A stretch of 62,540 nt of DNA, the filler included, from Thermodesulfobacteriota bacterium (GTDB lineage Bacteria > DASVDK01), in assembly GCA_036381125.1 (NCBI GenBank). It is 4 parts of 4 records of this genome, joined end to end, with 100 filler letters (N's around TTAATTAATTAA, not from the genome) between each part and the next. Parts side by side here need not be neighbours in the genome. Positions count along the whole stretch, not along the records: positions 1 to 21,860 come from DASVDK010000221.1; 3 more parts are not named here. One strand, 5' to 3'. Shown here in pieces: positions 2,895 to 55,233 of the stretch (position 1 is its first letter; each line of letters opens with the position of its first letter). The notes below the pieces were generated by a model that did no database searches, was not told where the DNA came from, and worked only from the letters and a program-made list of their open reading frames with translations. Made by a program: the position numbers and the translations under genes.

Positions 2895-4174
2895 TCGAGC
2901 GCCCGGGCGAGCACCGCCTCGCCGAGGTCGGCCGTGACCTCGGCCCTGACGAGGCGGCCGGCCGGCGGGGCGGGCCGGCCGTCGAAGCGGACCTTGAGGT
3001 ACTCGCGCGACCGCCCCTCCCCTCCCGCCTCGACCAGGACCTCCACCACACGGCCGATCGCCCGCCGGTGCCACGCCGCCCGCCGGCCGGCCGCCACCTC
3101 GCGCAGGCGCGCGGCGCGGCGTCGCACCTCGTCCGGCCGAAGCGCCCGGCCCTGCCGGGCCGCCGGCGTGCCGCGCCGCGCGGAGTACGGGAAAACGTGC
3201 AGGTAGCCGAACGGGAGCGACTCGACCAGTGACACCGTGGCCGCCGCCGCCTCGGGCGTCTCGCCCGGAAAGCCGGCGATCAGGTCGGCGCCGAGGCCCA
3301 CGTCGGGGACCCGCTCGACGAGGCGCCCGACCGCCCGCTCGACGTCGGCGCGCCGGTAGGGCCGCCGCATGCGGGCCAGCACGCCGTCGTCACCACTCTG
3401 GAGCGACAGGTGCACGTGCGGCACGAGGGCGGGGGCCGTCGCGAAGAGGCGCACGAGGTCGTCGGTGAGGTGACTCGGGAAGAGCGACGAGAGCCGAAGC
3501 CGCGGGACGACGTCGGCCTCCAGAAGGGCACGCACGAGGGAGACGAGGTCCGTGCCGGGGGCGAGGCCGCGGCCGTAGTCGCCGAGGTGGATCCCGGTGA
3601 CCGTGACCTCCCGGTACCCCTCGAGGGCGAGCGCGCGAAGGCGCGCCACGGCGGCGGCGATCGGCAGGCTCCGGCTGCGGCCCCGCGCGAACGGGACGAT
3701 GCAGAAGCTGCAGAAGGCGTCGCACCCGTCCTGGACCTTGAGGAACGCGCGGGTGCGCCCGTCGGCCGGCCCGTGGGCGAGCGGCTCGTCGTCGAGCCGG
3801 CGCGGCAGGGACGGCGCGAGGACGGTGACGCGGGACGGGCGGCCGAGGGCGATGAGCTCGGGGATGCGCCGGGCGGCGCCGTGCCCGACCACGTAGTGGA
3901 CGCCGGGCAGCGCCGCCGCCTGCGGCGACACCTGCGCATAGCAGCCGGTCACCAGGACGAGGGCGCCCGGCGCGGCCGCGACCGCGCGCCGGATGGCGCG
4001 GCGACTGTCGGCGTCGGCGCCGCTCGTGACGGTGCAGGTGTTGACGACGACCGCGTCGGCCGGCCCCGGGAAGGGGACGACCGTGAAGCCCTGGGCCGCG
4101 AGAAGGCGGGCGAGCGCCGAGCTCCCCTCCTGGTTGGTGCGGCAGCCGAGCGTCGTGATGGCGACCTGCGTCAC
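2891..4174 (-). CDS. mtaB: tRNA t6A37 methylthiotransferase (radical SAM, MtaB)
   Basis: [33 protein letters not shown] CxxxCxxC motif, [14 protein letters not shown] start overlapping mnmA stop. Confidence 0.9.
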
Positions 4175-5253
4175 CGCGCCGCCGCCCGGATCACGCCGCC
4201 CCCGAGGACGACGTCCCCGTCGTAGAACACGCCGGCCTGGCCGGGCGCGACGCCGGCCTGGGGCTCGTCGAAGCGGACGACGGCGCCCCCCTCGGGCGTC
4301 GGCGTGACGAGGGCGGTCGCTCCCGGGTGCCGCGCGCGGATCTTGACGACGGCACGCAGCGGGCCGGCCGGCGGCTCGCCGGAGACCCAGTGCGCCGGCG
4401 CGACCTCGCACCCGGCGCAGAGGAGCGCCGGCCGCGGGCCGACCGTTACGCGGGCCGCGGCCGCGTCGAGGGCGACCACGTACCGCGGCGTGCCGGGCGG
4501 GCCGGCAAGCGGCCCGAGGCCCCGGCGCTGGCCGACCGTGAAGCGGTGCACCCCCGTGTGGCGGCCGACCTCGCGCCCCTCGAGGTCGACCACCGCGCCC
4601 GGTCGCGGCGCCTCGGCGCCGGCGGCGCGCTCGACGAAGGCGGCGTGGTCGCCGTCGGGGACGAAGCAGATCTCCTGGCTGTCCGGCTTGTGGGCCACCG
4701 GCAGGCCGAGCCGCGCCGCCTCGGCGCGCACCTCGGCCTTGGTCATGTCGCCGAGCGGGAAGCGGGCGTGGCGCAGGGCGTCCTGGCCGAGCGGGTAGAG
4801 GTAGTACGACTGGTCCCTGGCCGGGTCCCGCCCCCTGAGCAGCCGGTACGGGCCGTTGCCGTCGACCCGCGCGTAGTGCCCCGTGGCGAGCGCCGTGGCG
4901 CCGAGGCCGCGGGCGAGGGCCAGCATCCGGTCGAACTTGAGGTGGCTGTTGCACGCGACGCAGGGGATCGGCGTGCGGCCGGCCAGGTACTCGCGGACGA
5001 AGGGGACGACGACCGCCTCGCGAAACGCCTCCTCGTAGTTCAGGACGTAATGGCGGAAGCCGAGGTGGTCGGCCACGCGGCGGGCGTCGCCGAGGTCGTC
5101 GGCGGAGCAGCAGCGGGAGGTCTCGCCCGACGGCGTGTAGAGGCGCATCGAGAGCCCGATCACCTCGTGCCCCTCGGCGACGAGGCGAGCGGCCGCGACC
5201 GAGGAGTCGACGCCGCCGCTCATGGCGACCGCGATGCGCGCGCGCGTGGCCAT
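4171..5253 (-). CDS. mnmA: tRNA 2-thiouridine(34) synthase MnmA
   Basis: [14 protein letters not shown]-loop, [33 protein letters not shown]. Confidence 0.97.
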
Positions 5254-5275: not shown

Positions 5276-6433
5276 CTACGCGGCGCCGGCCGGGGCGAGA
5301 GCGCGCAGCCGCTCGACGATCGCCGGCAGGACCTGCGCCACGTAGTCCACGTCCTCGTCCGTCGTGCCGTAGCCCAGGCTGAGCCGGACGCTTCCCTGCG
5401 CCGCCTCGCGCGTGAGCCCCATGGCGAGGAGGACGTGCGAGGGGTCGATCGATCCCGCCGCGCAGGCCGACCCGGACGACGCCGCGACGCCCTCGAGGTC
5501 GAGGGCGAGCAGGACCCCCTCCCCGTCCACCCCGTGGAAGGTGCAGTTCAGCGTGTTCGGCAGCCGCGGCGACCCGGCGCCGTTCACCTCCGACCGCGGG
5601 ACCATCTCGAGGAGCCGGGCCTCGAGGCGGTCGCGCAGCGCCGCCACGCGCGCCGGCGCCCCCTCGGCGAGGCGGCGGGCCGCGAGCTCCGCCGCGGCGC
5701 CGAGGCCCACGATGCCGGGCACGTTCTCCGTGCCGCCCCGGCGCCCCCCCTCCTGGCTGCCACCGGTCTGCTGGGCGGGAAGGCGAACGCCGCGGCGCAC
5801 GATCAACGCGCCGATCCCCTTCGGGCCGTTGAGCTTGTGACCGGACAGCGACAGGAGGTCGATGCCGATCGTCCGCATGTCGACCGGCACCTTCCCGACC
5901 GCCTGGGTGGCGTCGCAGTGGAACAGGACCCCGCGCGCCCGGCAGATGCGCGCCACCTCCGCCACCGGGAAGAGCACGCCGGTCTCGTTGTTGGCGAGCA
6001 TCACCGAGACGACGCGCGTGTCGTCGGTGATGGCCGCCTCGAGCGCCCCGAGGTCGAGGGCGCCCGTGCGGTCGACGCCGAGCCGGGTCACCCGGTGGCC
6101 CCGCCGCTCGAGGGCGTCGCACGTCGCCAGGACGGCGGAGTGCTCGACCGCGGTGGTGACGATGTGGCAGCCCGGCTCGCGCTCCGCGATGCCGCGCAGC
6201 GCAAGGTTGTCGCTCTCGGTGGCTCCGCTGGTGAAGATCACCTCGACCGGATCGGCCCCGACGAGCGCCGCGACCGCCTCACGGGCGCGGTTCACCGCCT
6301 GCCGCGCGGGACGCCCGGCGAAGTGGTGGCTCGAGGCGTTGCCGAAGGCCTCGCCGAAGAACGGCAGCATGGCCGCAACGACCGAGGGGTCGACCGGCGT
6401 GGTGGCGTTGTGATCGAGGTACACAGCCCGCAT
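5276..6433 (-). CDS. iscS: Cysteine desulfurase (IscS/NifS family)
   Basis: [39 protein letters not shown] (PLP Lys), SSGSAC. Confidence 0.93.
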
Positions 6434-6466: not shown

Positions 6467-6850
6467 TCAACGAAGCCGGGCAGATGCGCGTGCGATCGCC
6501 TCGACCTCGGCCACGTCGAAGGGCTTGCGCACGACCGCCGCCGCGCCGAGGGCGCGGCTCTCGCGAAGAATCCCTTCGTCCACCGCCGCCGTGACCATGA
6601 CCACGGGAACCCCGCGGCTCCTGGCGCCGAGGCGGCGCAGGAAGTCGAGCCCGCTCTCGCCCTGGAGCCGGATGTCGAGGAAGACCAGGCTCGGCGCGGT
6701 GCTCTCGAAGAGGCGCAGCGCGGCATCGACGTTCGCGGCGTGCCGGAGATCGAACTCGTCGCCGAGGAGGACGTCGAGCGCCTCCCGGACGCCGCGGTCG
6801 TCCTCGACGATCAGAATGGGGCCCCGCTGCGGGGCGACTGCGGTCACCAT
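6467..6850 (-). CDS. Single-domain response regulator (CheY-like receiver)
   Basis: ILIVEDD...VFLDIRLQGESG...VMVTA...KPF; no output domain; ATG 6850 lies just downstream of a sigma54 promoter. Confidence 0.88.
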   Translation of the reverse strand: MVTAVAPQRGPILIVEDDRGVREALDVLLGDEFDLRHAANVDAALRLFESTAPSLVFLDIRLQGESGLDFLRRLGARSRGVPVVMVTAAVDEGILRESRALGAAAVVRKPFDVAEVEAIARASARLR

Positions 6851-6863
6851 GAGGCCGCGGCTG

Positions 6864-6879
6864 AGCAAGAAGGGTGCCC
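6864..6879 (-). promoter_or_regulatory. sigma54 (-24/-12) promoter of the single-domain receiver gene
   Basis: Minus strand GGGCACCCTTCTTGCT matches GGCAC-N5-TTGCW; nearly identical to the element at 10866-10881. Confidence 0.75.
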
Positions 6880-7018
6880 TCGGGCCCGACCCGGGGAAGT
6901 CCCCGAAGTTCCACGGTCGAGGCTGCAACGTCCGTTACCCGCTGCCTTGCGCCCGGTGCAGCGCGGCGTGCCGACTGCACAGCGCGGTGGGCACCGCCGC
7001 CGGACGCCGCCCGAACCG

Positions 7019-8881
7019 TCAGCTCGCCGCGGCAACCGGCAGCGTGATCACGAACAGAGTTCCCGCGCCGACCGTGCTCTGGACCGTGATGAGCCCGCCG
7101 TGCTCCTCGACGATCTTGTGCGTCAGCGCGAGCCCGAGACCGGTCCCTTTGGCCTTGGTCGTGAAGAAGGGGTTGAAGAGCTGGCTCACCGTCTGTGCGT
7201 CCATCCCGGCGCCCGTATCGGCGACGCGCACCTCGATCGCCCTGGCGCCCGACGGCAGGCGGGTGGCGGCCGGACCGGTGGCGACGACGACCCGCCCGCC
7301 GGAGGGCATCGCCTCGATCGCGTTCACGACGAGGTTCGAGAACGCCCGCAGGAGATACTCCGCGTCGGCCCGCGCGGCGGGCAGTGCCGGGTCGAGCCTG
7401 GGGTCGCACTCGATGCCGCGCTCTTCCATCTGTCGGCCGTAGAGGTCGAGCACGCGCCGGATGAGCCCGTTCACGTCGGTCGCCGCGAAGCTCATCCGCG
7501 GCGCGCGCGCCAGCTCGAGGAGGTTCTCGACGATGCCGTTCACCCGGTCCAGCTCGCGTGGGACCGTCACGTTGAACTTGTCGCGAAACGCCACGTTGTC
7601 GAACTTCCGGGGGATGAGCTGCACGAAGGTCTTGATGGCGGCGAGCGGGTTCTTGATCTCGTGGGCGAGCCCGGCCGACATGGTGCCGAGCGCGGCCAGC
7701 CGGTCGGCCCGGCGCATTCGCGCCTCGAGCGCCTTGATCTCGGTGAGGTCGCGGAAGAGGACGAGCAGCCCCAGCCTCGCCCCCTGCGGATCGCGCAGCG
7801 GGGCCGTCGAGACCCCGAGCGGCAGCGTCCCGCCGGGCGCCTGGTACTCCACCTCGGCGTGACCGACCACCTCGTCGCCCTCGAGCCCCCGGCGGATGAG
7901 CTGCTCGAGCGGGGCGCCGGCCGGCACGATGCTCTCGAGCGGCGGCCGGTCGGCCACGCGCTCGGCCGGGATCCCGAGGAGCGTGGCGCCGACACGGTTG
8001 ATGGTGACGACGCGGCCGTCGAGGTCGACGGTGAGGAGCCCCTCGTCCATCGACCGGAGGATGTCCTCCTGGTAGCGCCGCAGCGCGTCGACGAGCGCGA
8101 GGTTCTGGACGAGCGCCTCCTGCTTCGCCGCCAGCTCGGCGCTCATGTGGTTGAACGCCGTGGCCAGCGCCTCGAGCTCGTCGCCGGTGCGGATGTCGAG
8201 CTGGAGCCCCACCTCCCCCTTCGCGAGCCGCCGCGCCCCGGCGGCCAGCTCGGCGACCGGCCGCGTGATGCGGCCGACGAGGACCTGCGCGTAGGCGAGC
8301 CCCCCGAGGAGCGCGATCAGGCCGATGGCGACGAGCGCCCCCCAGGTGCGGCGCACCTCCACCTCGAGCGGCTCGAGCGAGAGGCCGATCCGTACGGTTC
8401 CCCACCGCTCCTCCGATTCCGCGAAGCGGACCGGCACCGCCACGTCGAGGACCCGCTCCTCGACGCCGGTGTCGGGCGAGCGCCACCTGGTCGTCTGCAC
8501 CAGGACGTCGTTCGCGGCGTCGACCGCGCGGCTGACCGGGTCGTCCAGGCGGGTGCCCTGCAGGTGGTCCTGGCCGCTGTAGGCGGCGACGATGTGCTCC
8601 TTGTCGAGGAAGATGACGTACCGGACGTCGGCCTCGCGGGCCGCCTTCTCGGCGTACTGCTCGAGGGCGATGTAGTTGTAGGTACGCAGGGCGGTGTCCG
8701 CCGTCGCCGCGAGGTTGTTCGCGACGGCGCGCGCACGCTTCTCGGCCTCCGTGCGGATCAGGCGCGTCTCGCGCCAGGCGACGAAGGCGACGACCGCCAG
8801 CGTGAGGCCCGCGACGAGGACCAGGAGCGAGAGGAAGACCCGGCGCGCGAGACCGGCCGGCTCCCCCGCGGTGCTCAGCAT
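7019..8881 (-). CDS. Sensor histidine kinase (TM-periplasmic sensor-TM-HAMP-PAS-HisKA-HATPase)
   Basis: Two TM segments, HAMP (ITRPVAEL...DELEALATAFNHM), PAS, H-box LAHEIKNPL, N/G boxes NLVVNAIEA, DTGAGM, FFTTKAKGTGLGL. Confidence 0.95.
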   Translation of the reverse strand: MLSTAGEPAGLARRVFLSLLVLVAGLTLAVVAFVAWRETRLIRTEAEKRARAVANNLAATADTALRTYNYIALEQYAEKAAREADVRYVIFLDKEHIVAAYSGQDHLQGTRLDDPVSRAVDAANDVLVQTTRWRSPDTGVEERVLDVAVPVRFAESEERWGTVRIGLSLEPLEVEVRRTWGALVAIGLIALLGGLAYAQVLVGRITRPVAELAAGARRLAKGEVGLQLDIRTGDELEALATAFNHMSAELAAKQEALVQNLALVDALRRYQEDILRSMDEGLLTVDLDGRVVTINRVGATLLGIPAERVADRPPLESIVPAGAPLEQLIRRGLEGDEVVGHAEVEYQAPGGTLPLGVSTAPLRDPQGARLGLLVLFRDLTEIKALEARMRRADRLAALGTMSAGLAHEIKNPLAAIKTFVQLIPRKFDNVAFRDKFNVTVPRELDRVNGIVENLLELARAPRMSFAATDVNGLIRRVLDLYGRQMEERGIECDPRLDPALPAARADAEYLLRAFSNLVVNAIEAMPSGGRVVVATGPAATRLPSGARAIEVRVADTGAGMDAQTVSQLFNPFFTTKAKGTGLGLALTHKIVEEHGGLITVQSTVGAGTLFVITLPVAAAS

Positions 8882-8889
8882 CGCCTCGG

Positions 8890-8919
8890 AGTCTATCGGT
8901 CGGCGCGAGGCCAGGTCAA
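8890..8919 (-). promoter_or_regulatory. Putative sigma70 promoter, 8 nt before the kinase ATG (probably leaderless)
   Basis: TTGACC-N18-TAGACT-ccgaggcg-ATG; no SD sequence. Confidence 0.5.
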
Positions 8920-10502
8920 GGCCGGTCGAGCCAGACCTTCCGCATCGGCACGTACGGGGCTCCCAGGGCGCTCACCTCGACCCCCCTGACCGACGGCTGG
9001 TAGGCCTGCTCGTACCAGATGTGGAGAATCGGGATGATCGGCACGTCCTCGAGCACCTGCGCCTCGACGCGGCGGTAGATCTCCGCACGGCGCACCGGGT
9101 TCAGCTCGCGCCGGCCCTCGTCGAGGAGCGCGTCGACCTGCGGGTTCGAATAGTGCCAGTAGTTGTACCGGGACTGCGAATGAAAGAGGATGCCGAGGAT
9201 GTTGTCGGGATCCGGCAGGTCGGCGAACCAGGCGTAGCGGAAGAGCGACATGCGGCCCTCGGTGAGGAACCGCTGGAACTGCGGCCAGTCGTCGGCGAAC
9301 CTCGGCTCGGCGGCGAGCCCCAGGGCGTGCGCGGCATCCGCGATCCCGTCGAACTCCGCCCGCTGTGCCTCGGAGCGGACGGCGGACCACATCTCGAAGC
9401 CGCGCACGGCCTCCGGCCCCCCCGCCTCCCCGAGGAGCGCCGCGGCCCGCGCGCGATCGACCCGCGGCACGTCGCGCGCCGGGTTGTAGCCGAGCACGCC
9501 GGGCGGCAGGATCCCCGCGGCGGGCCGGTGCTTGCCCTTCGTCCCCGCCTCGACGACCGCCGCCCGATCGAACGCGAGCAGGAGCGCCATGCGCACCCGC
9601 GGGTCCCTCCACTCCGGCCTGGAGAGGTTGAACCCGTAGAACTGCAGGGCGAGCGTCGGCCGCCGGACGACCGGGAACGTCCCCGACGCGAGCGCCTCGT
9701 CCCGCAGCTCGCTCGGGATGGGCGACTCGTCGAAGTCGCCCTTCCGGAACGCGCGGTAGATGTCCGCGTCGGTGGCCGTCGGCATGATCGCGTAGCGGAT
9801 CCGATCGAGATAGGGCCGGCCCCGGAAGTGGGCGGGGTTGGCTTCGAGGACGATCGCCTTGCCCTCGTCCCACCTGACGATCCTGAAGGGCCCCGTGCCG
9901 ACCGGCGCCCGCTCGAAGGGGACATCCTTCGACTCGACCGCCTCGCGGGGGACGATCTTGGCCTTGTTCGTGGCGAGCAGCGACAGGAACGGGGCGTAGG
10001 GCTCCTCGAGCGTGACCTCGACCCGATTCGGGGTCACGGCCCGCACACCGCGAAGCGTCTCGGTCCTGCCCTGCCGTACGTCCCTGGCGCCGACGATGAG
10101 ATCGAACGTCTCCCCGGCGGTCGACCGCGTCTCGGGCTTGAAGAGGCGCGTCAGCGAGTAGACGACGTCGTCGGCCGTGACGGCGCGGCCCGAGTGGAAG
10201 CGGACGTCCCGCCTGAGGTCGAAGGTGTAGACGCGACCGTCACGCGACACCCGCCAGGAGCGGGCAATGGCCGGGATGATGTTCAGATCGCGGTCGAAGT
10301 CGACCAGCCCGTCGAAGATCTGCTGGATGACGGTCACCGCGTAGTAGTCGGTCGACCGCGCGGGGTCGAGCGTCCGCGGGGAGTAGCGGAGCGGGAACCT
10401 GTAGGTTCCGCCGATTCTGGGCGTAGGATCACCCGCATGGCCGGACGGCGCCCCGACGTGGAGCAGGAGTGCCGTGAGGGCAAGCGCGAGCAACCGCAGC
10501 AT
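8916..10502 (-). CDS. Family-5 (OppA/DppA-like) extracellular solute-binding protein, orphan
   Basis: Signal peptide; TLDPA...QIFDGLV...PAIARSW...YTFDLRRDVRFHSG...TADDVVYS; PVGTGPF; W..DLPDPDN; no permease or ATPase genes adjacent. Confidence 0.93.
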   Translation of the reverse strand: MLRLLALALTALLLHVGAPSGHAGDPTPRIGGTYRFPLRYSPRTLDPARSTDYYAVTVIQQIFDGLVDFDRDLNIIPAIARSWRVSRDGRVYTFDLRRDVRFHSGRAVTADDVVYSLTRLFKPETRSTAGETFDLIVGARDVRQGRTETLRGVRAVTPNRVEVTLEEPYAPFLSLLATNKAKIVPREAVESKDVPFERAPVGTGPFRIVRWDEGKAIVLEANPAHFRGRPYLDRIRYAIMPTATDADIYRAFRKGDFDESPIPSELRDEALASGTFPVVRRPTLALQFYGFNLSRPEWRDPRVRMALLLAFDRAAVVEAGTKGKHRPAAGILPPGVLGYNPARDVPRVDRARAAALLGEAGGPEAVRGFEMWSAVRSEAQRAEFDGIADAAHALGLAAEPRFADDWPQFQRFLTEGRMSLFRYAWFADLPDPDNILGILFHSQSRYNYWHYSNPQVDALLDEGRRELNPVRRAEIYRRVEAQVLEDVPIIPILHIWYEQAYQPSVRGVEVSALGAPYVPMRKVWLDRP

Positions 10503-10578
10503 CGAGATGGCCTCGCTCCCGGTCGGGGGACCCGACCCGTGCGATGGCCGCGCGGGTCGGTTCCCCAGGAGGGCCGCG

Positions 10579-10608
10579 ACGTTACCCGCGTCACGCTCGG
10601 GGTGTCAA
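10579..10608 (-). promoter_or_regulatory. Putative sigma70 promoter for the solute-binding protein gene
   Basis: TTGACA-N18-TAACGT, immediately after the upstream terminator. Confidence 0.6.
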
Positions 10609-10612
10609 GGGC

Positions 10613-10647
10613 AAAAAAAATGACGGCCCCGGGAGAGTGACCGTCAT
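10613..10647 (-). terminator. Rho-independent terminator of the small peptide gene
   Basis: Minus strand ATGACGG...CCGTCAT stem followed by a run of T. Confidence 0.8.
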
Positions 10648-10703
10648 GCTGCAGATGCAGCCAGGAGAACTGGAAGATCAGGCTTGACGAAGCTCGAGGA
10701 AGA

Positions 10704-10805
10704 CTAGACGCCGCCGCCGCCCTCCGCGAGCGCCGGCAGCACGTACGCGGCAACCGTGGCGCCCGTAACGAACAGCGTGACGAGAACTCTGCGCAGACCC
10801 TTCAT
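10704..10805 (-). CDS. Unannotated 33-aa secreted peptide precursor MKGLRRVLVTLFVTGATVAAYVLPALA-EGGGGV
   Basis: GGGGAGG SD upstream of ATG; basic n-region, hydrophobic h-region, Pro then A-L-A signal peptidase site; flanked by its own sigma54 promoter and terminator; below the ORF-track length cutoff. Confidence 0.8.
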   Translation of the reverse strand: MKGLRRVLVTLFVTGATVAAYVLPALAEGGGGV

Positions 10806-10865
10806 CTCTCAACCCTCCCCAGGAAGCCATGCACGTGGAGCAAACCGGAATCGCCCACTGGCCTG

Positions 10866-10881
10866 AGCAAGGAGGGTGCCA
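10866..10881 (-). promoter_or_regulatory. sigma54 (-24/-12) promoter of the peptide gene
   Basis: TGGCACCCTCCTTGCT is a perfect TGGCAC-N5-TTGCW match; predicted TSS ~10855. Confidence 0.85.
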
Positions 10882-10918
10882 CCATTGCCGCGCCGCACCA
10901 TGGCGGGCAGGACGTCCG

Positions 10919-10931
10919 TAAACTATTGTTA
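10919..10931 (-). promoter_or_regulatory. Putative IHF binding site upstream of the sigma54 promoter
   Basis: TAACAATAGTTTA, one mismatch to WATCAA-N4-TTR, inside an isolated AT-rich patch. Confidence 0.55.
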
Positions 10932-11113
10932 TATCTATGGATTCTCCGAGCGGTGCCGAAGGCCGCCCGATGGCCGGGGTGCGAGGTGCCCAGCCGCCCG
11001 TGCAGCCCCCCTCGGCCGGACGCCTGGCCCGTACGCGAATCGCCGCGCCACGCGTGCTCCAGCGCACAACTGCCACGGAAACTGTGCAATGCCCTGTGGA
11101 GTGTGCAGCCGTG

Positions 11114-12613
11114 TCAGCGGAGGACTGGCGGGACCGGAACGGCCGGCGTGTCCTCGTCGTCGGGGTCGGCTTCGCCCGGCCCGAGGGTCCGTCGGTCGGC
11201 CGTCGAGAGCGCCTCGGCGCGGCGGCGGCGGCCGATCTCGCCGAGGTCTTCCCGGATGCCCAGCTCGTCGAGCTTGGCCATGAGGGTATTGCGGTGGATG
11301 CCGAGGATCTGTGCGGCCCGGCTCTGGTTGCCGCCGGTGTCCTCGAGGATGCGCAGGATGTAGCGCCGCTCGAAGCTCTCCCGCGCCTCCTTGAGCGTCC
11401 AGCGCTCGCCGGCGTCGGTTGCCGGCAGCTCGACGGCGCGGTCGAACAGCTCGGCCGGCAGCTCCTTGACGGTGATGAGCTGCTCGCCCGGGGCGAGGAC
11501 GACGAGGCGCTCGACCATGTTCTCGAGCTCGCGGATGTTCCCCGGCCAGGCGTACCGGCAGAGCACGTCCATGGCCTTGGCCGAGAAGCCGGGCACGCGC
11601 TTGCGGAAGCTCCGGGTGAAGCGCCCGAGGAAGTGCTCGGCGAGGAGCGGGATGTCCCCTCGCCGCTCCCTGAGGGGCGGCAGCGAGATCGGCACCACGT
11701 TGAGCCTGAAGTAGAGGTCGCTGCGGAAGAGCCCCCGGCGAACCGCCTCGGCGAGGTCGGTGTTCGTGGCGGACACGATCCGCACGTCCACCGGGATGGT
11801 CCGCGGGCTGCCGACCCGCTGGATCTCGCGCTCCTGCAGGACGCGCAGGAGCTTGGCCTGCAGGCTCATGGGGAGGGTCGCGATCTCGTCCAGGAACAGG
11901 GTGCCGCCGTGCGCGAACTCGAACTTGCCGATCTTGCGCTCGTACGCGCCGGTGAACGCCCCCTTCTCGTGGCCGAAGAACTCGCTCTCCATCAGCTCCT
12001 GCGGGATGGCGGCGCAGTTGACGGCCACGAAGGGCGCCGCCCGGCGCGGGCTCTCGCGGTGGATCGACCGGGCGATCAGCTCCTTGCCCGTCCCGCTCTC
12101 GCCCGTGATGAGCACGCTCGAGGTCGTCTGGGCCACCTTCCGCACGAGGCCGAAGATCTCGAGCATGCGGGGATCGCGCGAGACGATGTCGCCGAAGGTG
12201 CGGCCGGCAAGCTCGCTCCTGAGGAACGCGACCTCCCGCTCGAGGGCCTGCTTGGCGATGATCTTCTCGGACAGGGCGAGGAGGTCGTCCGGCGCGAAGG
12301 GCTTGACCAGGTAGTCGTAGGCCCCGAGCTTCATCGCCGCCACGGCCTTCTCGGCCGTGTTGACCGCCGACACCATCACCACCTCGACCGAGGGGTCGAG
12401 CATCTTGATGTCGGAGAGGACGGCGAGCCCGTCCCGGCCCGGCATGGTGATGTCCAGGAAGACGATGTTGACCGTGACGGTGCGCAGGACCTCGAGGGCG
12501 TCGCGGCCGTTCTCGGCCGAGAAGGTCTGGTAGTGATCCTCGAGCGTCAGCTCGATGGCCTGGCGAACGGCGGGCTCGTCGTCGACGACGAGGACGACGG
12601 GCTTGAGGTCCAT
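11114..12613 (-). CDS. sigma54-dependent response regulator (REC-AAA+-Fis HTH, NtrC/AtoC family)
   Basis: REC (VVDDE...FLDITMPG), GESGTGKE, ESEFFGHEKGAFTGA, FLDEI, WPGNIRELEN, HTH NQSRAAQILGIHRNTL. Confidence 0.96.
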   Translation of the reverse strand: MDLKPVVLVVDDEPAVRQAIELTLEDHYQTFSAENGRDALEVLRTVTVNIVFLDITMPGRDGLAVLSDIKMLDPSVEVVMVSAVNTAEKAVAAMKLGAYDYLVKPFAPDDLLALSEKIIAKQALEREVAFLRSELAGRTFGDIVSRDPRMLEIFGLVRKVAQTTSSVLITGESGTGKELIARSIHRESPRRAAPFVAVNCAAIPQELMESEFFGHEKGAFTGAYERKIGKFEFAHGGTLFLDEIATLPMSLQAKLLRVLQEREIQRVGSPRTIPVDVRIVSATNTDLAEAVRRGLFRSDLYFRLNVVPISLPPLRERRGDIPLLAEHFLGRFTRSFRKRVPGFSAKAMDVLCRYAWPGNIRELENMVERLVVLAPGEQLITVKELPAELFDRAVELPATDAGERWTLKEARESFERRYILRILEDTGGNQSRAAQILGIHRNTLMAKLDELGIREDLGEIGRRRRAEALSTADRRTLGPGEADPDDEDTPAVPVPPVLR

Positions 12614-12620
12614 GGAGAAG

Positions 12621-12649
12621 GGATTACCGCGGCCCCCAGGGGCTGTCAA
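12621..12649 (-). promoter_or_regulatory. Putative sigma70 promoter, 7 nt before the activator ATG (leaderless)
   Basis: TTGACA-N17-TAATCC-cttctcc-ATG. Confidence 0.55.
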
Positions 12650-14822
12650 ACGCGGGCAGGCGGACCCGGAAGACCGTCCCCTGCGCCAGCTCGCTCTCCA
12701 CCGTCACGGTCCCCCCGTGGGCCTCGACGATCTTCTTCACGATGGCGAGCCCGAGCCCGGTGCCGCCGTGCTTCCGGGTGGAGGATCCGTCCACCTGATA
12801 GAAGCGATCGAAGATCTTCGGCAGGTGCTCGGGCGGGATGCCGATGCCGTCGTCGGCCACCGCGATCTCCACCTCGTGCGCCGCGTGCCCCACCGCGTCG
12901 GCCGGCAGGATGGCGGCCCCCGCCCCGCTCGCGACGAGATCGGGTGCCAGCGCCTCGGTCGGCGCCGCGGCCACGGCCCGCACCGTGAGCGTGACGTGCC
13001 CGCCGGCCGGGGTGAACTTCACGGCGTTGCGCAGGAGGTTGGTCACCACCTGCATGAGCTTCGCCCGCTCCCCCCGGATGTCGGGGAGCCCTCGCGGCAC
13101 CGTGAGCGCCAGCTCGACCCCCTTCTGCTTGGCCAGCGGCTGGACCTCCCCGAGGCTGCTCTCCACCAGCTCGCCGGTCGTGACCCGCTCGAGCCTCGGG
13201 ACGTACTTGCCGACCTCGAGCCGCGTCAGCTCGAGGAGGTCCTCGATCAGGGTCTTGAGCCGGTCGGTGCTCTTGCGCATGGCCATCATGCAGTCGAGCT
13301 GGGCCGCGTTGAGCTCGCCGATCTCCTGGCTCACGAGGAGGTCGAGGTAGCCGACGATCGGCGAGATCGGCGTGATCAGCTCGTGGGAGATGTTCTGGAT
13401 GAACTCCCCCTTGAGCCGGTCGAGCTCCTTCAGCTCGTCGTGCGCCCGCGTCAGGTTCGAGAAGAGCTGCGCGTTCTCGAGGGCCACGGCGGCCTGGTTG
13501 GCGAGCGTGCCGAGCGTCTCGAGGTCCTCGCTCGAGTACGGGGTGCCGTCCGCGCGGGCGCCGAGGGCGAGGACGCCCGAGAGCCGGTCCTTGACCGCGA
13601 GGACGACCCCCACCTGCGCGTCGTTGGCCTCGAGCCAGGTCCCCTGCGCGACGCGCCGCGCGTCGGCGATCGGGCTCAGGAGGTCCTGGCGCACGAGGAT
13701 CCGCTCGGCCCCGCTGAAGCGCCGCTCCCACCCCTCGGGCTGGGGTGCGAGCGGCCTCAGGCCGACGCCGGCCTCGTACACGACCCCCGGCTCGCGATCG
13801 CCGATGAGCGCGAGCACGACACGCGGGCTCTCCATGGCGCGGCTCACCGTCTCCACGATCTTGCCGAGCAGCGTCCCGAGGTCGAGGATCGTCGTCATGG
13901 ACCGCGAGAGGTCGCGCAGGCTCTCGAGGTAGGCGTAGCGGCGGCGGAAGAGCGTCTGCTCGATCGTCTGCTCGGTCTTGAGCTTGAGGCTCGGGAAGAG
14001 GAGCGCGATGAAGAGGAACAGGACCGACATGACGAGCGAGAAGAGCAGGTTCACCTGGCCGAAGAAGAGCTGCTGCGCGATGATCGCGACGCCGAACGCC
14101 GGCAGGATCACGAGCACGGCCAGCGCCGTGAGGGTCAGCGACTTCTTGAGCACCAGCGTGATGTCCATGAGCTGGTACTTGAGGATCGCGTAGCCGAGCA
14201 CGGCGCAGTACAGGAACATGAAGTAGTTCCCGTACGGCACGATGTGGATCCCGAACATCGGGAGGAAGTTGGTCGACCCCCCGGCGAACCCGATCGCCGA
14301 CCCGACGATGACGTAGCGCGTCTGCGCCTTCTTGAGGCCGGTGACCTCGATGTGCGCGCGGACGAGCTGGAGCGTCGCCTGCGCGACGATGAAGACGTAG
14401 AAGGTGAGGAACACCGGGTAGAGCGGGCCGGCCTGCGGGAAGAAGGCGAACTCGCTGACCCGGTCGACGCGCGGGATGAAGGGGGGCGTCAGGGCCAGCA
14501 CGAAGAAGAGCACCGAGCAGACGTACGACGCGTCGAGCAGCCGGCTCTCCTCCCGCCGGCCGGTGAGCACCATGATGAAGTGCAGGTAGAGGGTCGGGAT
14601 GAAGGCCGCGGCCAGGTGGGCGAAGCGGCTCCACCAGAGCGCCGCCCCGGGGCTGTCCGCCAGGCTGTGCAGGAAGAGCGCCAGCGACCAGAGGCCGACG
14701 ACGGCCGACAGGAGCGAGAAGACCCGGTTCAGGCGGCTCTTGGCGTTCCGCCAGAAGACGAACGTCCCCAGCGCGATGCAGGAGATCGCCGTGAGCAGCG
14801 TCGAGGCGGAGTAGACGATCAC
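12624..14822 (-). CDS. Membrane sensor histidine kinase (multi-TM HisKA_7TM-like N-terminus, GAF, HisKA, HATPase)
   Basis: ~280 aa polytopic N-terminus; GAF (YSSEDLETLGTLANQAAVALENAQL); H-box ISHELITP; NLLRNAVKFT, DDGIGI, GGTGLGL; GGAGG SD before GTG. Confidence 0.93.
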   Translation of the reverse strand: MIVYSASTLLTAISCIALGTFVFWRNAKSRLNRVFSLLSAVVGLWSLALFLHSLADSPGAALWWSRFAHLAAAFIPTLYLHFIMVLTGRREESRLLDASYVCSVLFFVLALTPPFIPRVDRVSEFAFFPQAGPLYPVFLTFYVFIVAQATLQLVRAHIEVTGLKKAQTRYVIVGSAIGFAGGSTNFLPMFGIHIVPYGNYFMFLYCAVLGYAILKYQLMDITLVLKKSLTLTALAVLVILPAFGVAIIAQQLFFGQVNLLFSLVMSVLFLFIALLFPSLKLKTEQTIEQTLFRRRYAYLESLRDLSRSMTTILDLGTLLGKIVETVSRAMESPRVVLALIGDREPGVVYEAGVGLRPLAPQPEGWERRFSGAERILVRQDLLSPIADARRVAQGTWLEANDAQVGVVLAVKDRLSGVLALGARADGTPYSSEDLETLGTLANQAAVALENAQLFSNLTRAHDELKELDRLKGEFIQNISHELITPISPIVGYLDLLVSQEIGELNAAQLDCMMAMRKSTDRLKTLIEDLLELTRLEVGKYVPRLERVTTGELVESSLGEVQPLAKQKGVELALTVPRGLPDIRGERAKLMQVVTNLLRNAVKFTPAGGHVTLTVRAVAAAPTEALAPDLVASGAGAAILPADAVGHAAHEVEIAVADDGIGIPPEHLPKIFDRFYQVDGSSTRKHGGTGLGLAIVKKIVEAHGGTVTVESELAQGTVFRVRLPAFDSPWGPR

Positions 14823-14873
14823 GGCCGGCCCTCCGTCGTGTCCGTGCCCGTCACATGGCCGCCATCATAGCGA

Positions 14874-15602
14874 CTAGGCGATCTCCTGGGGATCGGGGTG
14901 CCCGGCGGGCGCGGCGACGGCGCGCTTGGGCATCGGCCAGAACGCCCAGTTCTCCCGCTGGAAGCGCCGGTAGTCCTCGCCGAAGAGCTCGAGCAGGCGG
15001 CGCTCCTCGAGGTAGCTGCGCAGGACCTGGAGGTTCACGTTGACCAGCAGCGCGAAGACGAGCGTGTACCAGGAGTTGGTCGCCAGCGGGATCCCCACCA
15101 CCTCGAGGAAGACGCCGCAGTAGATCGGGTGCCGCATGAGCCGGTAGGGCCCGGTGCGGACGAGCCGCCGGGGCACGTGCAGCTTGTTCTCGCCGAGGAT
15201 GTGGATGCCCCACTGGGGCCCCAGCGTGATCATCCCCCACCAGCGCAGCACGAAGGCCAGGCCGTAGAGGAGGAGCCCCGCCGCCGTGGCCGGCCAGAGG
15301 ATCGCCCGCTCCATGAAGAAGAACTCGAAGGTCGTGCCGTACATCATGATGATGTAGGCGGCCGACACGGCGGCGAGCGACCAGTCGCCGGACAGCGTGC
15401 GCGGCTCCCGTTCGTTCGTCGTGAAGAAGTTCTCCCAGAGCCGCTCGCTGCCGGCGAAGAGCAGGAAGAAGGTGAAGAACGTGTACGAGTGCTCGCGCCG
15501 CGTCGAGTACTGGGAGAAGTGCAGGTAGATGACGATCGCGAGCCCCACGATGGACACGAGGATCAGGAGCGGGATGACGTTGAGTCGACGAAGCGGTCTC
15601 AT
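14874..15602 (-). CDS. Isoprenylcysteine carboxyl methyltransferase (ICMT/PEMT) family membrane protein
   Basis: Multiple TMs; LVRTGPYRLMRHPIYCG and EERRLLELFGEDYRRF motifs; ATGA overlap with the ketosynthase stop. Confidence 0.88.
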   Translation of the reverse strand: MRPLRRLNVIPLLILVSIVGLAIVIYLHFSQYSTRREHSYTFFTFFLLFAGSERLWENFFTTNEREPRTLSGDWSLAAVSAAYIIMMYGTTFEFFFMERAILWPATAAGLLLYGLAFVLRWWGMITLGPQWGIHILGENKLHVPRRLVRTGPYRLMRHPIYCGVFLEVVGIPLATNSWYTLVFALLVNVNLQVLRSYLEERRLLELFGEDYRRFQRENWAFWPMPKRAVAAPAGHPDPQEIA

Positions 15603-16882
15603 GCGCTCCTCGCACCGTTGCGGCGCACGATGAGGGTCACGTTGCTGCCCCCGTAGCCGAACGCGTTGGCGAGAACCGTCCGGAGCCCCGGGGCCGGGCG
15701 GGCCTCGCCGGCGACCACGTGGACGTCGCAGTCCGGATCGGGGTCCTCGAAGTTGATCGTGGGGGTGATGACGCCGTGCTCGAGCATGAGGGCGCTGGCG
15801 ATGACCTGCAGCGCGCCCCCTGCCGCGAACGGCTGCCCCACCATCGACTTGATCGACGTGACCGGGACGGTGGCGCCCCGCGGACCGAAGACCTCGCGGA
15901 TGGCCGAGCACTCGTTCCGGTCGGTGAGCGGGATCGAGCCCGCGTGCGCGTTCACGAGGTCCACGTCGTCGGGCCCGAGGCCCGCGCTTTCGAGCGCGAG
16001 CGACATGCAGCGCGCGAAGCCGTCGCCGTGCGGGTCGACGCGGATCATCTCGTACGCGTTGGCCGTCGTCGCGTAGCCGGCGACCTCGGCGTAGACGTGG
16101 GCGCCGCGCGCGAGCGCCCGATCGAGCGCCTCGAGCACGACGACGCCGGCCGCCTCCGCCATGACGAGGCCGTCGCGCCCCCGGTCGAACGGCCTCGAGG
16201 CGCGCTCCGGCTCGTCGTTGCGCGTCGACAGGATCCGCGCGCTGGCGCCCGAGCCGATGCCGAACGGCGTGACCGGCGCCTCCGCGCCGCCCGCGAGCAT
16301 CGCGTCGGCCAGGCCGCTCGCGACCGCCTCGGCCGCCCATCCGATCGCGTTCGAGCCGGCCGAGCAGCCGGTCGACATCGTCATGAGCGGCCCCTTCGCG
16401 CCGCTCCGGATCGAGATCAGGCCGGCGGCCGCGTTCGGGAAGGCCGCCTCGAGGATCCAGGGGGGCAGCCGCCTGAGCCCCCGCTCGAGGTAGAGCGAGT
16501 AGGCGTACTCCGTGATGTCGAGCTGGCTCGTGCCGACCCCCATGGCGACGCCGACACGCGTGGCGTCCGCCGGGTCGATCGCGAACTTCGCGTCGGCCAT
16601 GGCGAGGGTCGCCGCCGCGGCGGCCAGGTGCACGGCCCGCCCCGAGCGGCGCAGCGTGACCGGGTCGAGGAACGCGGCCGGGTCGAAGTCACGGATCTCC
16701 CCGGCGATCCGGCAGGCGAGCCCCGAGGCGTCGAACCGCGTGATCGGGCCGATGCCGCTGCGTCCCGATACGAGCCCGGTCCAGAACGCGTCGCGCCCGA
16801 CGCCGATCGGCGTGACGGGGCCGAGCCCCGTGATGGCGACCCGCCGCCGCGCCGCACGCCGACCGTTGCCGTTGACCCCCAC
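15599..16882 (-). CDS. Beta-ketoacyl synthase (FabF-like) with Cys-His-Gln triad
   Basis: RRVAITGLGPVTPIG, STGCSAG, SRPFDRGRDG, NAHAGS, KSMVGQPFAAGG, NAFGYGGSN. Confidence 0.9.
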   Translation of the reverse strand: MGVNGNGRRAARRRVAITGLGPVTPIGVGRDAFWTGLVSGRSGIGPITRFDASGLACRIAGEIRDFDPAAFLDPVTLRRSGRAVHLAAAAATLAMADAKFAIDPADATRVGVAMGVGTSQLDITEYAYSLYLERGLRRLPPWILEAAFPNAAAGLISIRSGAKGPLMTMSTGCSAGSNAIGWAAEAVASGLADAMLAGGAEAPVTPFGIGSGASARILSTRNDEPERASRPFDRGRDGLVMAEAAGVVVLEALDRALARGAHVYAEVAGYATTANAYEMIRVDPHGDGFARCMSLALESAGLGPDDVDLVNAHAGSIPLTDRNECSAIREVFGPRGATVPVTSIKSMVGQPFAAGGALQVIASALMLEHGVITPTINFEDPDPDCDVHVVAGEARPAPGLRTVLANAFGYGGSNVTLIVRRNGARSA

Positions 16883-17042: not shown

Positions 17043-17690
17043 TCAGCGGTGCGCGCGGCCGCAGCGCGTGTCGGGCGCCGCCGCCGCGAAGGGCCCGACT
17101 GCCGCCGCCGTGGACGGGCCGACCCCCGGCACACGGACGAGCGCCTGCACGGACGTGAAGGGGCCGCGCCTGGCGCGGTCGGCCACGATCCGCGCGGCCA
17201 GGACCGGTCCGATCCCCGGCAGACGGTCGAGGTCGGCCGCGGCATCGGCGTTGAGGTCGAGCGGCAGGCCGAGCCGCAGCCGCCGGACCGCCGGCATGCA
17301 GCCGAGCGCCGCGCGGCCGGTCGGCGTGACGAGGAGGCGGGAGCCGGGCAGCAGCCTCGCCCGGGCGCTCCGCGAACCCGCCACCGGCGTCCCGGCCGGC
17401 AGGCCCGCCGCGGCGAGGAGGTCGGCGAGCCGCGCGCCGGCCGGCAGCGCCACCAGGCGGGGCCGGTCCCCGACCCGAACGACGTCGACCAGGATGCGCA
17501 TGGGGTCCGGTTCGAGGAGTGGGGCTGCGGCGCGGGAGTTCCGGGATGCCGGCGCCACTGCGGTCTGGAGTGGCGGCCGCCTCGCCCCGTCGCTCGATCC
17601 CCAGCCGGCGGCGGCCCGCCACCCGGCCGCGGCGCCGAGGATCGCCAGCGTCAGCGCCGCCGCCGCACCGATCGGTCCCGACCAGGCCAT
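17043..17690 (-). CDS. ComEA-family helix-hairpin-helix DNA-binding protein
   Basis: N-terminal TM; LDLNADAAADLDRLPGIGPVLAARIV...GPFTSVQALVRVPGVG HhH repeats. Confidence 0.82.
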   Translation of the reverse strand: MAWSGPIGAAAALTLAILGAAAGWRAAAGWGSSDGARRPPLQTAVAPASRNSRAAAPLLEPDPMRILVDVVRVGDRPRLVALPAGARLADLLAAAGLPAGTPVAGSRSARARLLPGSRLLVTPTGRAALGCMPAVRRLRLGLPLDLNADAAADLDRLPGIGPVLAARIVADRARRGPFTSVQALVRVPGVGPSTAAAVGPFAAAAPDTRCGRAHR

Positions 17691-53676: not shown

Positions 53677-55233
53677 ATGGCCGAGCGGGTGCTGATCGTC
53701 GACGACGAAGAGAGCATGCGGTTCGTCCTGCGGCGGGCGCTCGAGAAGGAAGGCTACGACGTCGAGGTGGCGGCAACCGGCGAGGCGGCCCTCGCGCGGG
53801 CGGCCGAGCGGCGCTTCGACCTCGTGCTCCTCGACATCCGGATGCCCGGCCTCTCGGGGCTCGACGTCCTGACGACGCTCAGGAGCGACGGCGCCGCGTC
53901 CGCCGAGGCGAACGGCGCGCGGGGGCAGGCGCCGACCGGCCCCGAGGTCATCATCCTCACCGCGCAGAACACGATGAAGAACGCGGTCGAGGCGATGAAG
54001 CGGGGCGCCTACGACTACCTCACCAAGCCGGTCGACCTCGACGAGCTCAAGGTCCTCGTGCGCAAGGCGCTCGACGCCCGCGCCCTCGCCTCGCAGATCG
54101 AGACCCTCAAGGCGGAGGTGCGCGAGAAGTACGACCAGGGCTACTTGCTCGTCGGGCAGTCGGAGCCGATGCAGCAGATCTTCAAGCTCATCGGGAAGGT
54201 CGCCAAGAGCGACGTGACGGTGCTCATCGAGGGGGAGAGCGGCACCGGCAAGGAGCTGATCGCGCGGTCGCTCCACTACCACAGCGACCGGCTCGGCAAG
54301 CCCTTCGTCGCCGTCAACTGCGCCGCCATCCCGCGCGACCTCCTCGAGGCCGAGCTGTTCGGCTTCGAGAAGGGGTCCTTCACGGGGGCCGTGGAGCGCC
54401 GGATCGGCCGCTTCGAGCAGGCCCACGGCGGCACGCTCTTCCTCGACGAGATCGGCGAGATGCCGCTCGAGCTGCAGGCGAAGCTCCTGCGCGTCATCCA
54501 GGAGCGGGAGATCGACCGGGTCGGCTCGAAGGGGACCGTTCCGATCGACGTGCGGATCATCGCCGCCACGAACCAGGACCTCCGCGCCCTCGTCCAGCAG
54601 CGCCGCTTCCGCGAGGACCTCTTCTACCGGCTCGACGTGGCGCGCATCCCGGTGCCCCCGCTCAGGGACCGGCGCGAGGACATCCCCGCCCTCGCCGACT
54701 TCTTCCTCTCCCGCTTCCGCAGCGAGCTGGCCGCGGGCGGCAAGTCGCTCTCGAAGGAGGCCCTGCGGCTCCTCACGGCGCACCACTGGCCCGGCAACGT
54801 CCGCGAGCTCGAGAACGCCCTCAAGCGGGCCGTCGTCCTGTCGTCGAACCCGACGCTCCTGCCGGAGGACTTCCCCGAGCTGCTCGCCACGCGCGGCCAG
54901 GGCCCGCGCATCGACGACCTCTCGCTCGAGGAGCTGCTCGAGGTGAAGCTGCGGCGGTTCCTCGACCAGATGGAAGGGCTCTCGCTGTCGGGCATCTACG
55001 GACAGGTGATCGAGGTCGTCGAGCGGCCGCTCCTCAAGCTGATCCTCGAGCGGACCGGCGGCAACCAGGTGCGGGCGGCCGAGATCCTCGGCATCAACCG
55101 CAACACGCTGCGCAAGAAGCTGTCGGTGCTCGGCGTACCGGTCCGCGCGACGCGCGGCGGCTCGCGCGAGAACGGCGGCAAGGCGGCCCTCCCGCCGCGC
55201 GAGAGCGGCGGCCGCGGCGGCGCGGACCTCTGA
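53677..55233 (+). CDS. ntrC: sigma54-dependent response regulator, NtrC-like
   Basis: REC, GESGTGKE, GSFTGA, WPGNVRELEN, GNQVRAAEILGINRNTLRKK. Confidence 0.8.
   Translation: MAERVLIVDDEESMRFVLRRALEKEGYDVEVAATGEAALARAAERRFDLVLLDIRMPGLSGLDVLTTLRSDGAASAEANGARGQAPTGPEVIILTAQNTMKNAVEAMKRGAYDYLTKPVDLDELKVLVRKALDARALASQIETLKAEVREKYDQGYLLVGQSEPMQQIFKLIGKVAKSDVTVLIEGESGTGKELIARSLHYHSDRLGKPFVAVNCAAIPRDLLEAELFGFEKGSFTGAVERRIGRFEQAHGGTLFLDEIGEMPLELQAKLLRVIQEREIDRVGSKGTVPIDVRIIAATNQDLRALVQQRRFREDLFYRLDVARIPVPPLRDRREDIPALADFFLSRFRSELAAGGKSLSKEALRLLTAHHWPGNVRELENALKRAVVLSSNPTLLPEDFPELLATRGQGPRIDDLSLEELLEVKLRRFLDQMEGLSLSGIYGQVIEVVERPLLKLILERTGGNQVRAAEILGINRNTLRKKLSVLGVPVRATRGGSRENGGKAALPPRESGGRGGADL

Follow-up and report, generated by a model that had tools for sequence, protein, structure and literature searches.

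A short gene for a Gly-rich peptide linked to an orphan Dpp/Opp-type binding protein, an sCache kinase and a sigma54 activator in Thermodesulfobacteriota and other lineages

Genes and promoters of the locus

The subject of this study is a cluster of eight genes in a 62.5-kb stretch of DNA from Thermodesulfobacteriota bacterium DASVDK01 (assembly GCA_036381125.1; the whole stretch that was analysed is called the window below), and in particular a 33-codon gene for a Gly-rich peptide with a signal peptide that lies between the genes for a sigma54 activator and a periplasmic binding protein. Five of the eight genes constitute a module (module 1) that consists of the activator, the peptide gene with a sigma54 promoter (P1) and a terminator, the binding protein, an sCache kinase and a lone receiver behind a second such promoter (P2). 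This module is present in dozens of loci labelled Thermodesulfobacteriota, Methylomirabilota/Rokuibacteriota, Nitrospinota and Spirochaetota. The other three genes, for a ketosynthase, a methyltransferase and a 7TM-GAF kinase, form part of a second set (module 2). The original prediction had taken all eight as one signalling cassette, a view that did not survive comparison with other genomes, in which the two modules occur separately.

By GC3 (G+C at third codon positions) frame analysis, all genes of the region are on the minus strand. The window has a G+C content of ~72%, so that open frames alone carry little weight, and the eight co-oriented genes that had been predicted between comEA and iscS-mnmA, running from the ketosynthase down to the lone receiver, are borne out by these frames together with Pfam (Table 1). 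The methyltransferase ATG overlaps the ketosynthase stop codon by 4 nt, and 10 nt separate the stop codon of the 7TM-GAF kinase gene from the ATG of the activator gene, which has a TTG lying upstream at 12649. Two other open reading frames (ORFs) were rejected: one at 14851–15615, which is spurious as the methyltransferase frame by GC3, and a longer receiver ORF reaching 6928, which would engulf P2.

The peptide and receiver genes had been predicted to carry near-identical sigma54 promoters, and P1 and P2 do have 17 of 17 specified bases in common. When the window was searched with the bare consensus (TGGCAC-N5-TTGC), the result was not significant, with two matches against 1.72 expected and at least two in 55 of 100 shuffles. 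The 17-base core common to P1 and P2 has no other copy in the window (0.13 expected), and the pattern TGCCCA-N7-GTGCA, a candidate activator site upstream of each promoter, has two matches in the whole window against 0.00 expected; both patterns were taken from the two sites themselves, and these counts are therefore descriptive only. P1 and P2 stand out from chance because corresponding promoters recur at these positions in homologous loci. A P1-type promoter was found between the activator and binding-protein genes in 27 of 35 loci in a first pass, 70–107 nt before the peptide ATG across loci, and a P2-type promoter after the kinase gene in 28 of the 39 loci having at least 400 nt downstream. 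Behind P2, 24 of these 28 loci have a 119–126-aa receiver homologous to that of the window (judged by eye, with three confirmed by Pfam). In other loci an inverted repeat likewise lies 105–125 nt upstream of both promoters, and in one clade it reads TGCCTAT-N4-ATAGGCA. The promoter sequences, the repeat 105–115 nt upstream of each and the positions kept in other loci together identify P1 and P2 as sigma54 promoters.

In two genomes the TGCCTAT-N4-ATAGGCA repeat occurs at P1, at P2 and at one additional place only, so the regulon may be larger. This third perfect copy, at L102:3733-4156 (genome G002, contig 14), is followed ~90 nt on by a sigma54-type promoter and an ORF of 85 aa without a Pfam family. 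Genes for a collagen-repeat protein and for a paralogous kinase–activator pair are close by, and the site may serve that pair or mark a further target.

A strong Shine–Dalgarno sequence precedes the peptide ORF, in the window as in other loci, and an intrinsic terminator follows it. In an RNAfold scan, a hairpin with a T-run was found after 49 of the 58 peptide genes described below. In loci with the 33-aa form of the peptide (L012, L013, L018, L023, L024, L032, L033 and others) the terminator hairpin is immediately preceded by a conserved sequence, GGTTGGTTGGTG, within the 3′ untranslated region. Directly after the terminator of the window, TTGACA-18 nt-TAACGT at 10579–10608 is a candidate for a weak sigma70-like promoter of the binding-protein and kinase genes; it was picked out by eye and is absent from the output of an automated scan. 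The remainder of the window holds housekeeping genes, with no ABC permease among them, and a second receiver–sigma54–HTH_8 activator gene, at 53677–55233, adjoins thiamine and peptidase genes.

Table 1. Features of the locus and its flanks, by position in the window
Feature	Position	Strand	Basis or detail
FabF-like ketosynthase	15599-16882	-	Pfam ketoacyl-synt N and C domains
ICMT/PEMT-family membrane methyltransferase	14874-15602	-	Pfam PEMT and ICMT; GC3 frame
HisKA_7TM-GAF histidine kinase	12624-14822	-	Pfam HisKA_7TM, GAF, HisKA, HATPase_c
AtoC-like receiver-sigma54-HTH_8 activator	11114-12613	-	Pfam Response_reg, Sigma54_activat, HTH_8
Candidate upstream activator site for P1	10987-11004	.	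TGCCCA-N7-GTGCA, ~115 nt before -24
Sigma54 promoter P1 (-24/-12)	10867-10881	-	TGGCACCCTCCTTGC; exact consensus match; 76 nt before peptide ATG
33-aa pre-peptide ORF	10704-10805	-	MKGLRRVLVTLFVTGATVAAYVLPALAEGGGGV; signal peptide ends P-A-L-A, then EGGGGV
Intrinsic terminator after peptide ORF	10613-10647	-	Hairpin and T8, -20.5 kcal/mol (RNAfold)
Orphan SBP_bac_5 periplasmic binding protein, Dpp/Opp-type	8916-10502	-	Pfam, 254 bits
AtoS-like sCache_3_2-HAMP-PAS histidine kinase	7019-8881	-	Pfam
Candidate upstream activator site for P2	6976-6993	.	TGCCCA-N7-GTGCA, ~105 nt before -24
Sigma54 promoter P2 (-24/-12)	6865-6879	-	GGGCACCCTTCTTGC; one consensus mismatch; 14 nt before receiver ATG
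Lone CheY-like receiver, 127 aa	6467-6850	-	Pfam Response_reg
Flank: comEA-like gene	17043-17690		
Flank: iscS	5276-6433		
Flank: mnmA	4171-5253		

Conservation of the two modules and of the peptide family

The loci compared comprised 80 from species-representative genomes and 20 from metagenomes, and in all 100 the binding protein is at most 59% identical to that of the window, closer kin lying outside the sample. Of the 86 loci with room downstream of the binding-protein gene, 76 have a gene for an sCache-kinase relative there. An activator relative is encoded upstream on the same strand in 46 loci, downstream in 16 and divergently in three. An ORF for a signal peptide with a Gly-rich tail was found, by a broader filter, between the activator and the binding protein in every one of the 46 loci with the activator upstream, while the peptide-ORF filter applied to three sets of control regions gave 0/80, 1/60 and 0/51. 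The linkage of the peptide holds across three gene orders, with the activator upstream, with the activator downstream (L016, L046, L058) and with the peptide gene after a divergent activator (L050, L051). In the Pfam-annotated loci, no other conserved target gene was seen within module 1. Examination of homologues, of the short ORFs between their genes and of their synteny, as the original prediction had proposed, thus upheld five of the eight genes (activator, peptide, binding protein, kinase and receiver, with their −24/−12 promoters) and did not uphold the ketosynthase, ICMT and 7TM kinase genes.

The binding protein had been described as an orphan, and in the loci compared it is indeed not part of an importer. 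Dpp/Opp-type permease genes were present in six of 101 sequences, and none was within the module or in the window. One of the six is a separate operon (L006), and the other five belong to the most distant relatives of the binding protein, without an adjoining kinase gene. Pfam annotation of 10 loci likewise showed no linked importer permease, and on these grounds the protein is not assigned to a Dpp/Opp ABC peptide importer. Its homologues form a small close set at 62–88% identity and a very large one at 40–50%, and the nearest solved structures are those of peptide binders (8upi, HbpA, DppA and OppA). Asp428 is aligned to the W-x-x-D Asp of DppA/OppA, the residue that holds the α-amino group of the ligand, and all 18 relatives in the alignment (18/18) retain it; this conservation fits a ligand with a free N terminus. 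Together with the match to PF00496, Asp428 places the protein among the peptide-binding SBP_bac_5 proteins of DppA/OppA type. A nickel or metallophore sensor was considered and rejected, as NikA-type scores are far weaker than Dpp/Opp scores. A search of the PDB with the C-terminal 128 residues alone gave no match, and prediction of a complex between residues 24–528 of the binding protein and the 33-aa pre-peptide gave a score of 0.01, which is evidence neither way.

The peptide gene belongs to a family of which we catalogued 58 short-form members in 52 loci, the window included, with ORFs of 29–33 aa. That the ORF is coding is apparent from the Shine–Dalgarno sequences and from the pairwise differences per site, which are 0.22 at the first codon position, 0.11 at the second and 0.42 at the third, and the amino acid sequence is kept across genomes of very different G+C content. 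The peptides have a basic start, a hydrophobic core of ~13 residues and, counted from the predicted cleavage site, an invariant −4 Pro and −1 Ala (28/28 and 11/11), after which come 5–6 further residues. In the 29-aa group this tail is mostly Glu or Asp, three small residues (mainly Gly) and Trp or Tyr; the 30–33-aa groups have four Gly with a variable residue on either side. No other positions of the peptide vary as much as the two ends of the predicted mature tail. Pro at +1 occurs in none of the 58 short-form genes, and the sequences of all 58 agree with the rules for Sec signals cut by signal peptidase I (a basic n-region, a core of 7–15 residues, −3 and −1 both small, and Pro absent from +1), which makes the peptides candidates for cleavage.

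Longer forms of 44–57 aa, present in loci labelled Methylomirabilota/Rokuibacteriota, NC10, Nitrospinota and Spirochaetota, resemble the short ones only in the signal peptide and the acidic Gly-rich C terminus. Five loci have two or three tandem peptide genes (L029, at 9228-9788; L048; L049; L054; L078), and the three copies in an NC10-labelled locus are identical. When 1.84 billion protein representatives were searched with a profile of the peptide, 72 cluster representatives of 29–100 aa matched at their C terminus, of which 60 sequences were inspected. The window peptide has no match in Pfam or NCBIfam, and ten members of the family gave only chance-level matches in these libraries (best E 0.0075, far below the cut-off); an Atlas search with the peptide returned only unnamed clusters with scores <0.9, and a scan against Rfam found no family (best E 0.91). 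A precursor of a ribosomally synthesized and post-translationally modified peptide was rejected as a description, there being no modifying enzyme conserved beside the peptide gene. One further locus, L047, has a set of binding-protein, kinase and activator genes without the short peptide; at L047:14797-15400, next to kinase genes, a sigma54-type promoter precedes a signal-peptide protein with repeats each ending in Gly-Asp-Gly-Gly-Ser, a layout that could yield several copies of a related Gly-rich peptide from one precursor.

The three upstream genes of the cluster have a different distribution. The ketosynthase is indeed a variant, as had been proposed: aligned to FabF (1e5m), it retains the catalytic Cys and the first His, and the second catalytic His is replaced by Gln. 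With this Cys-His-Gln triad and a score of 446.5 against 493.75 for TIGR03150 it falls outside FabF proper, while passing the subfamily model PRK07314; distant orthologues in L112 and L113 retain the His. The methyltransferase belongs to the ICMT/PEMT families (PEMT 55.4 and ICMT 53.1, against gathering scores of 25 and 24), and a search of 5.8 billion proteins gave only 11 homologues at E≤1e-10. Homologues 30–38% identical to it were present in five of 401 sampled genomes (from the phylum of one relative), and the gene order around these five is a FadL/TodX-type outer-membrane channel, ketosynthase, SDR-type (short-chain dehydrogenase/reductase) reductase, methyltransferase, HisKA_7TM-GAF kinase, receiver–AAA–HisKA hybrid and sigma54 activator. 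Relatives of the 7TM-GAF kinase adjoin ketosynthase and ICMT genes in L112, L113, L115 and L116. No binding protein or peptide was found at module-2 loci elsewhere, and no ketosynthase, ICMT or 7TM kinase in the 100 module-1 loci.

The cluster in the window is therefore best read, from these gene arrangements, as a lineage-specific fusion of two separately conserved modules. The window activator is 53–59% identical to module-1 activators and 44–48% identical to module-2 activators; being closer to the former, it indicates that module 2, minus its own activator, sits directly upstream of module 1. The fusion illustrates the rewiring of two signalling modules onto one activator. Outside the lineage of the window the ketosynthase and ICMT genes are unlinked to the peptide, which makes it unlikely that their products modify it, as had been suggested. 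Equal lengths of the contigs that carry them (27,320 and 11,893) suggest that the methyltransferase and binding-protein genes are linked in two relatives as well. In the relatives that probably carry both, the methyltransferase is 83–89% and the binding protein 64–67% identical to the window proteins, so that the sensor protein evolves much faster than the enzyme.

Possible role of the peptide

We give an even chance to the hypothesis that the peptide is exported and cleaved and is then sensed by the binding protein and the kinase, closing an autoinduction loop. In its favour are the synteny, the promoter positions with their shared upstream repeat, the coding signature and export-signal features of the ORF, the variable tail ends, the long forms that keep the Gly-rich tail, the tandem copies, and a binding protein of peptide type without a linked permease. 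According to this hypothesis, Sec would export the pre-peptide and signal peptidase I would cut it after the invariant P-x-x-A, so that EGGGGV, or a tail of 5–6 residues in relatives, is released at the outer face of the inner membrane. There the binding protein would grip the free tail via its conserved Asp, the putative binder of the α-amino group, and the loaded protein would dock on the sCache domain of the kinase and set the kinase/phosphatase balance. The kinase would control phosphorylation of the activator, and the activator would drive both P1, which makes the feedback loop, and P2, whose receiver may compete for phosphate and so damp the loop. Should the peptide cross the outer membrane, the loop would report cell density. 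The 7TM-GAF kinase, encoded 10 nt from the activator, would supply a second input, in which a hydrophobic compound made by the ketosynthase and methyltransferase is probably involved. Within this scheme, quorum sensing, peptide binding and the role of the receiver as a phosphate sink are hypotheses.

A wider and more tentative proposal, which we regard as possible and rather doubtful, is that these peptides may be diffusible Gly-rich penta- and hexapeptide autoinducers of diderms, unmodified and ribosomally made. Sec would export them, and an orphan OppA-like protein would detect them outside the cytoplasm, acting on a Cache kinase and through it on a sigma54 activator. Such signals would span at least four phylum-level groups, with pherotype-like variation of the tail, and in the lineage of the window they would be wired together with a lipid-signal module at a single activator.

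Several observations weigh against an autoinduction loop. The leader is more conserved than a plain export signal needs (Val15, Tyr18, Pro21 and Ala24 are invariant), which would fit a role inside the membrane, and the Gly-rich tail offers little side-chain information for a specific signal. In several lineages Cys stands at +1 (V-M-A-C, V-L-A-C) in a lipobox-like junction that would tether the peptide; the window peptide is without Cys, and Pro at −4 does not suit the usual lipobox pattern. Triads of binding protein, kinase and activator without the peptide occur in acidobacterial loci and some others, and no sigma54 promoter was found within the 10 kb examined on either side of them; their existence means that the sensor can work on another ligand. 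In the window, P2 is only 14 nt from the receiver ATG, without a ribosome-binding site, which implies a nearly leaderless mRNA; the corresponding distance in other loci is 48–164 nt. Finally, the automated terminator scan of the region reported none, the terminator after the peptide gene having been missed because its 14-nt loop exceeds the loop limit of the scan.

The same conservation of the leader, the lipobox-like A-C junctions (L046, L048, L049, L058 and L078) and the triads that imply a separate ligand for the sensor would be accommodated if the peptide remained in the inner membrane, uncleaved or, in the Cys variants, lipid-anchored, as a micro-protein modulating the sCache kinase in the manner of MgrB on PhoQ. 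The binding protein would then sense an external ligand, for example peptides from the environment or the cell wall, and P1 and P2 would be two feedback brakes, in keeping with a peptide gene that is a direct target of the system's own activator. We judge this explanation, the main rival of the loop, rather unlikely, since a core of ~13 residues followed by the invariant Pro-x-x-Ala suits a signal-peptidase site better than a membrane anchor, the long forms of Methylomirabilota/Rokuibacteriota and Spirochaetota keep the tail and not the short anchor layout, and the conserved Gly-rich tail with its variable end residues would be left unexplained. MgrB and SafA are tiny membrane-targeted proteins that are induced by two-component systems and feed back on PhoQ; they differ from the present family in that they are not known to have a cleavable-looking signal, a conserved Gly-rich tail or a partner binding protein.

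A second rival is that the peptide is an output only, the binding protein and kinase sensing an environmental oligopeptide or other nutrient and the small sigma54-driven gene encoding an effector without a part in sensing, such as a small peptide active on membranes, an envelope factor or a Gly peptide that chelates metal. The 40–49% identity of the binding protein to very many generic Dpp/Opp-like proteins agrees with this, as do the triads without peptide in Acidobacteriota and elsewhere, and the additional inverted repeat in two genomes may point to a larger regulon. However, the linkage between peptide and sensor is strict (46/46) and persists through rearrangements, the module is without another conserved target gene, and the additional repeat lies beside a paralogous kinase–activator pair to which it may belong, so that we consider an output-only role improbable. 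That the small ORF is not a functional protein at all, being either a Gly-codon leader that attenuates read-through into the binding-protein and kinase genes or part of a sigma54-driven small RNA, is very improbable: the terminator between the ORF and the binding-protein gene, the Gly codons immediately before the stop and the order of a sigma54 activator and a short terminated transcript, which recalls Qrr and Pxr, would fit, but the amino acid sequence is conserved across differing G+C contents with change mostly at third positions, long and tandem forms occur, and no Rfam family matched (best E 0.91).

Relation to known systems and significance

The arrangement of module 1 resembles two well-known types of signalling system and belongs to neither. 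In Vibrio, a transporter-less periplasmic binding protein, LuxP, sets the membrane kinase LuxQ, which acts on the sigma54 activator LuxO, and the polytopic CqsS provides a second input. The likeness to the window lies in the combination of binding protein, kinase and sigma54 activator and in a polytopic kinase with a presumed lipid-type signal as the second input. However, the binding protein here is of the SBP_bac_5 family and not of the LuxP type, the kinase is without a receiver domain, no Hpt (histidine phosphotransfer) gene is present, and a Qrr-like RNA was not found with Rfam; moreover, the signal proposed here is a peptide of ribosomal origin, and its own gene is a sigma54 target. The activator scores 343.5 bits against the LuxO model, for which the cut-off is 800, and with this score, no Hpt relay and no Rfam match the locus is not assigned to the LuxPQ–LuxO systems.

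The second type is that of the Bacillus Phr peptides, in which a short Sec pre-peptide yields an active C-terminal penta- or hexapeptide recognized by an OppA-family protein. The predicted Sec pre-peptide with its putative C-terminal oligopeptide, and the OppA-type protein that would recognize it, liken module 1 to Phr–Opp–Rap, whereas here no RRNPP receptor is encoded nearby, detection would take place outside the cytoplasm via a kinase and the host is probably a diderm. No permease genes are linked, so that import, unlike in Phr–Opp, is not expected.

In NCBIfam, the kinase and the activator match AtoS and AtoC of Escherichia coli best, and the domain order is shared. The scores (336.9 bits against a cut-off of 646 for AtoS, and 486.2 against 714 for AtoC) are below the equivalog cut-offs, and the two proteins are classed as AtoSC-like. 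The E. coli system is not known to include a binding protein, peptide or lone receiver. Module 2 recalls PhcB–PhcS of Ralstonia and CqsA–CqsS of Vibrio in having fatty-acid-type enzymes, including a methyltransferase, beside a membrane kinase, but the enzyme families differ (FabF-like ketosynthase, SDR and ICMT-type), and the analogy is one of gene content only.

Linear peptide signalling is textbook knowledge for monoderms and is regarded as rare in diderms. Signalling partners of SBP_bac_5 proteins are described in the available part of a 2021 review (PMC8050422), namely DppA–Tap, AibA–TlpB and CBP–ChiS, and none of the pairs covered there involves a self-made peptide. CBP–ChiS of Vibrio cholerae, as treated in that part of the review, is alike in that an SBP_bac_5 protein controls a sensor kinase (PMC8050422). 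It differs in that the ligand of CBP is chitin oligosaccharide, that CBP is linked to transporter genes, and that there is no self-made ligand and no sigma54 loop. A full-text search of the literature found no description of module 1 or of the peptide, though supplements could list such loci, and the accessible portions of PMC12316311 and PMC4641369 were found to contain no mention of the module or the peptide.

The locus draws attention to a gene of 29–33 codons that lies outside the curated family libraries, is linked to sensor genes (binding protein and kinase) and to that of a sigma54 activator, and has anaerobic syntrophs among its carriers. If the peptide is the ligand, the module would be a directly testable system of cell–cell or self-sensing in poorly studied environmental lineages, for which Desulforhabdus sp. 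TSK, by its label, is a cultured carrier. If the peptide instead acts as a membrane micro-protein, it would still add a new and conserved member to the micro-proteins that regulate sensor kinases.

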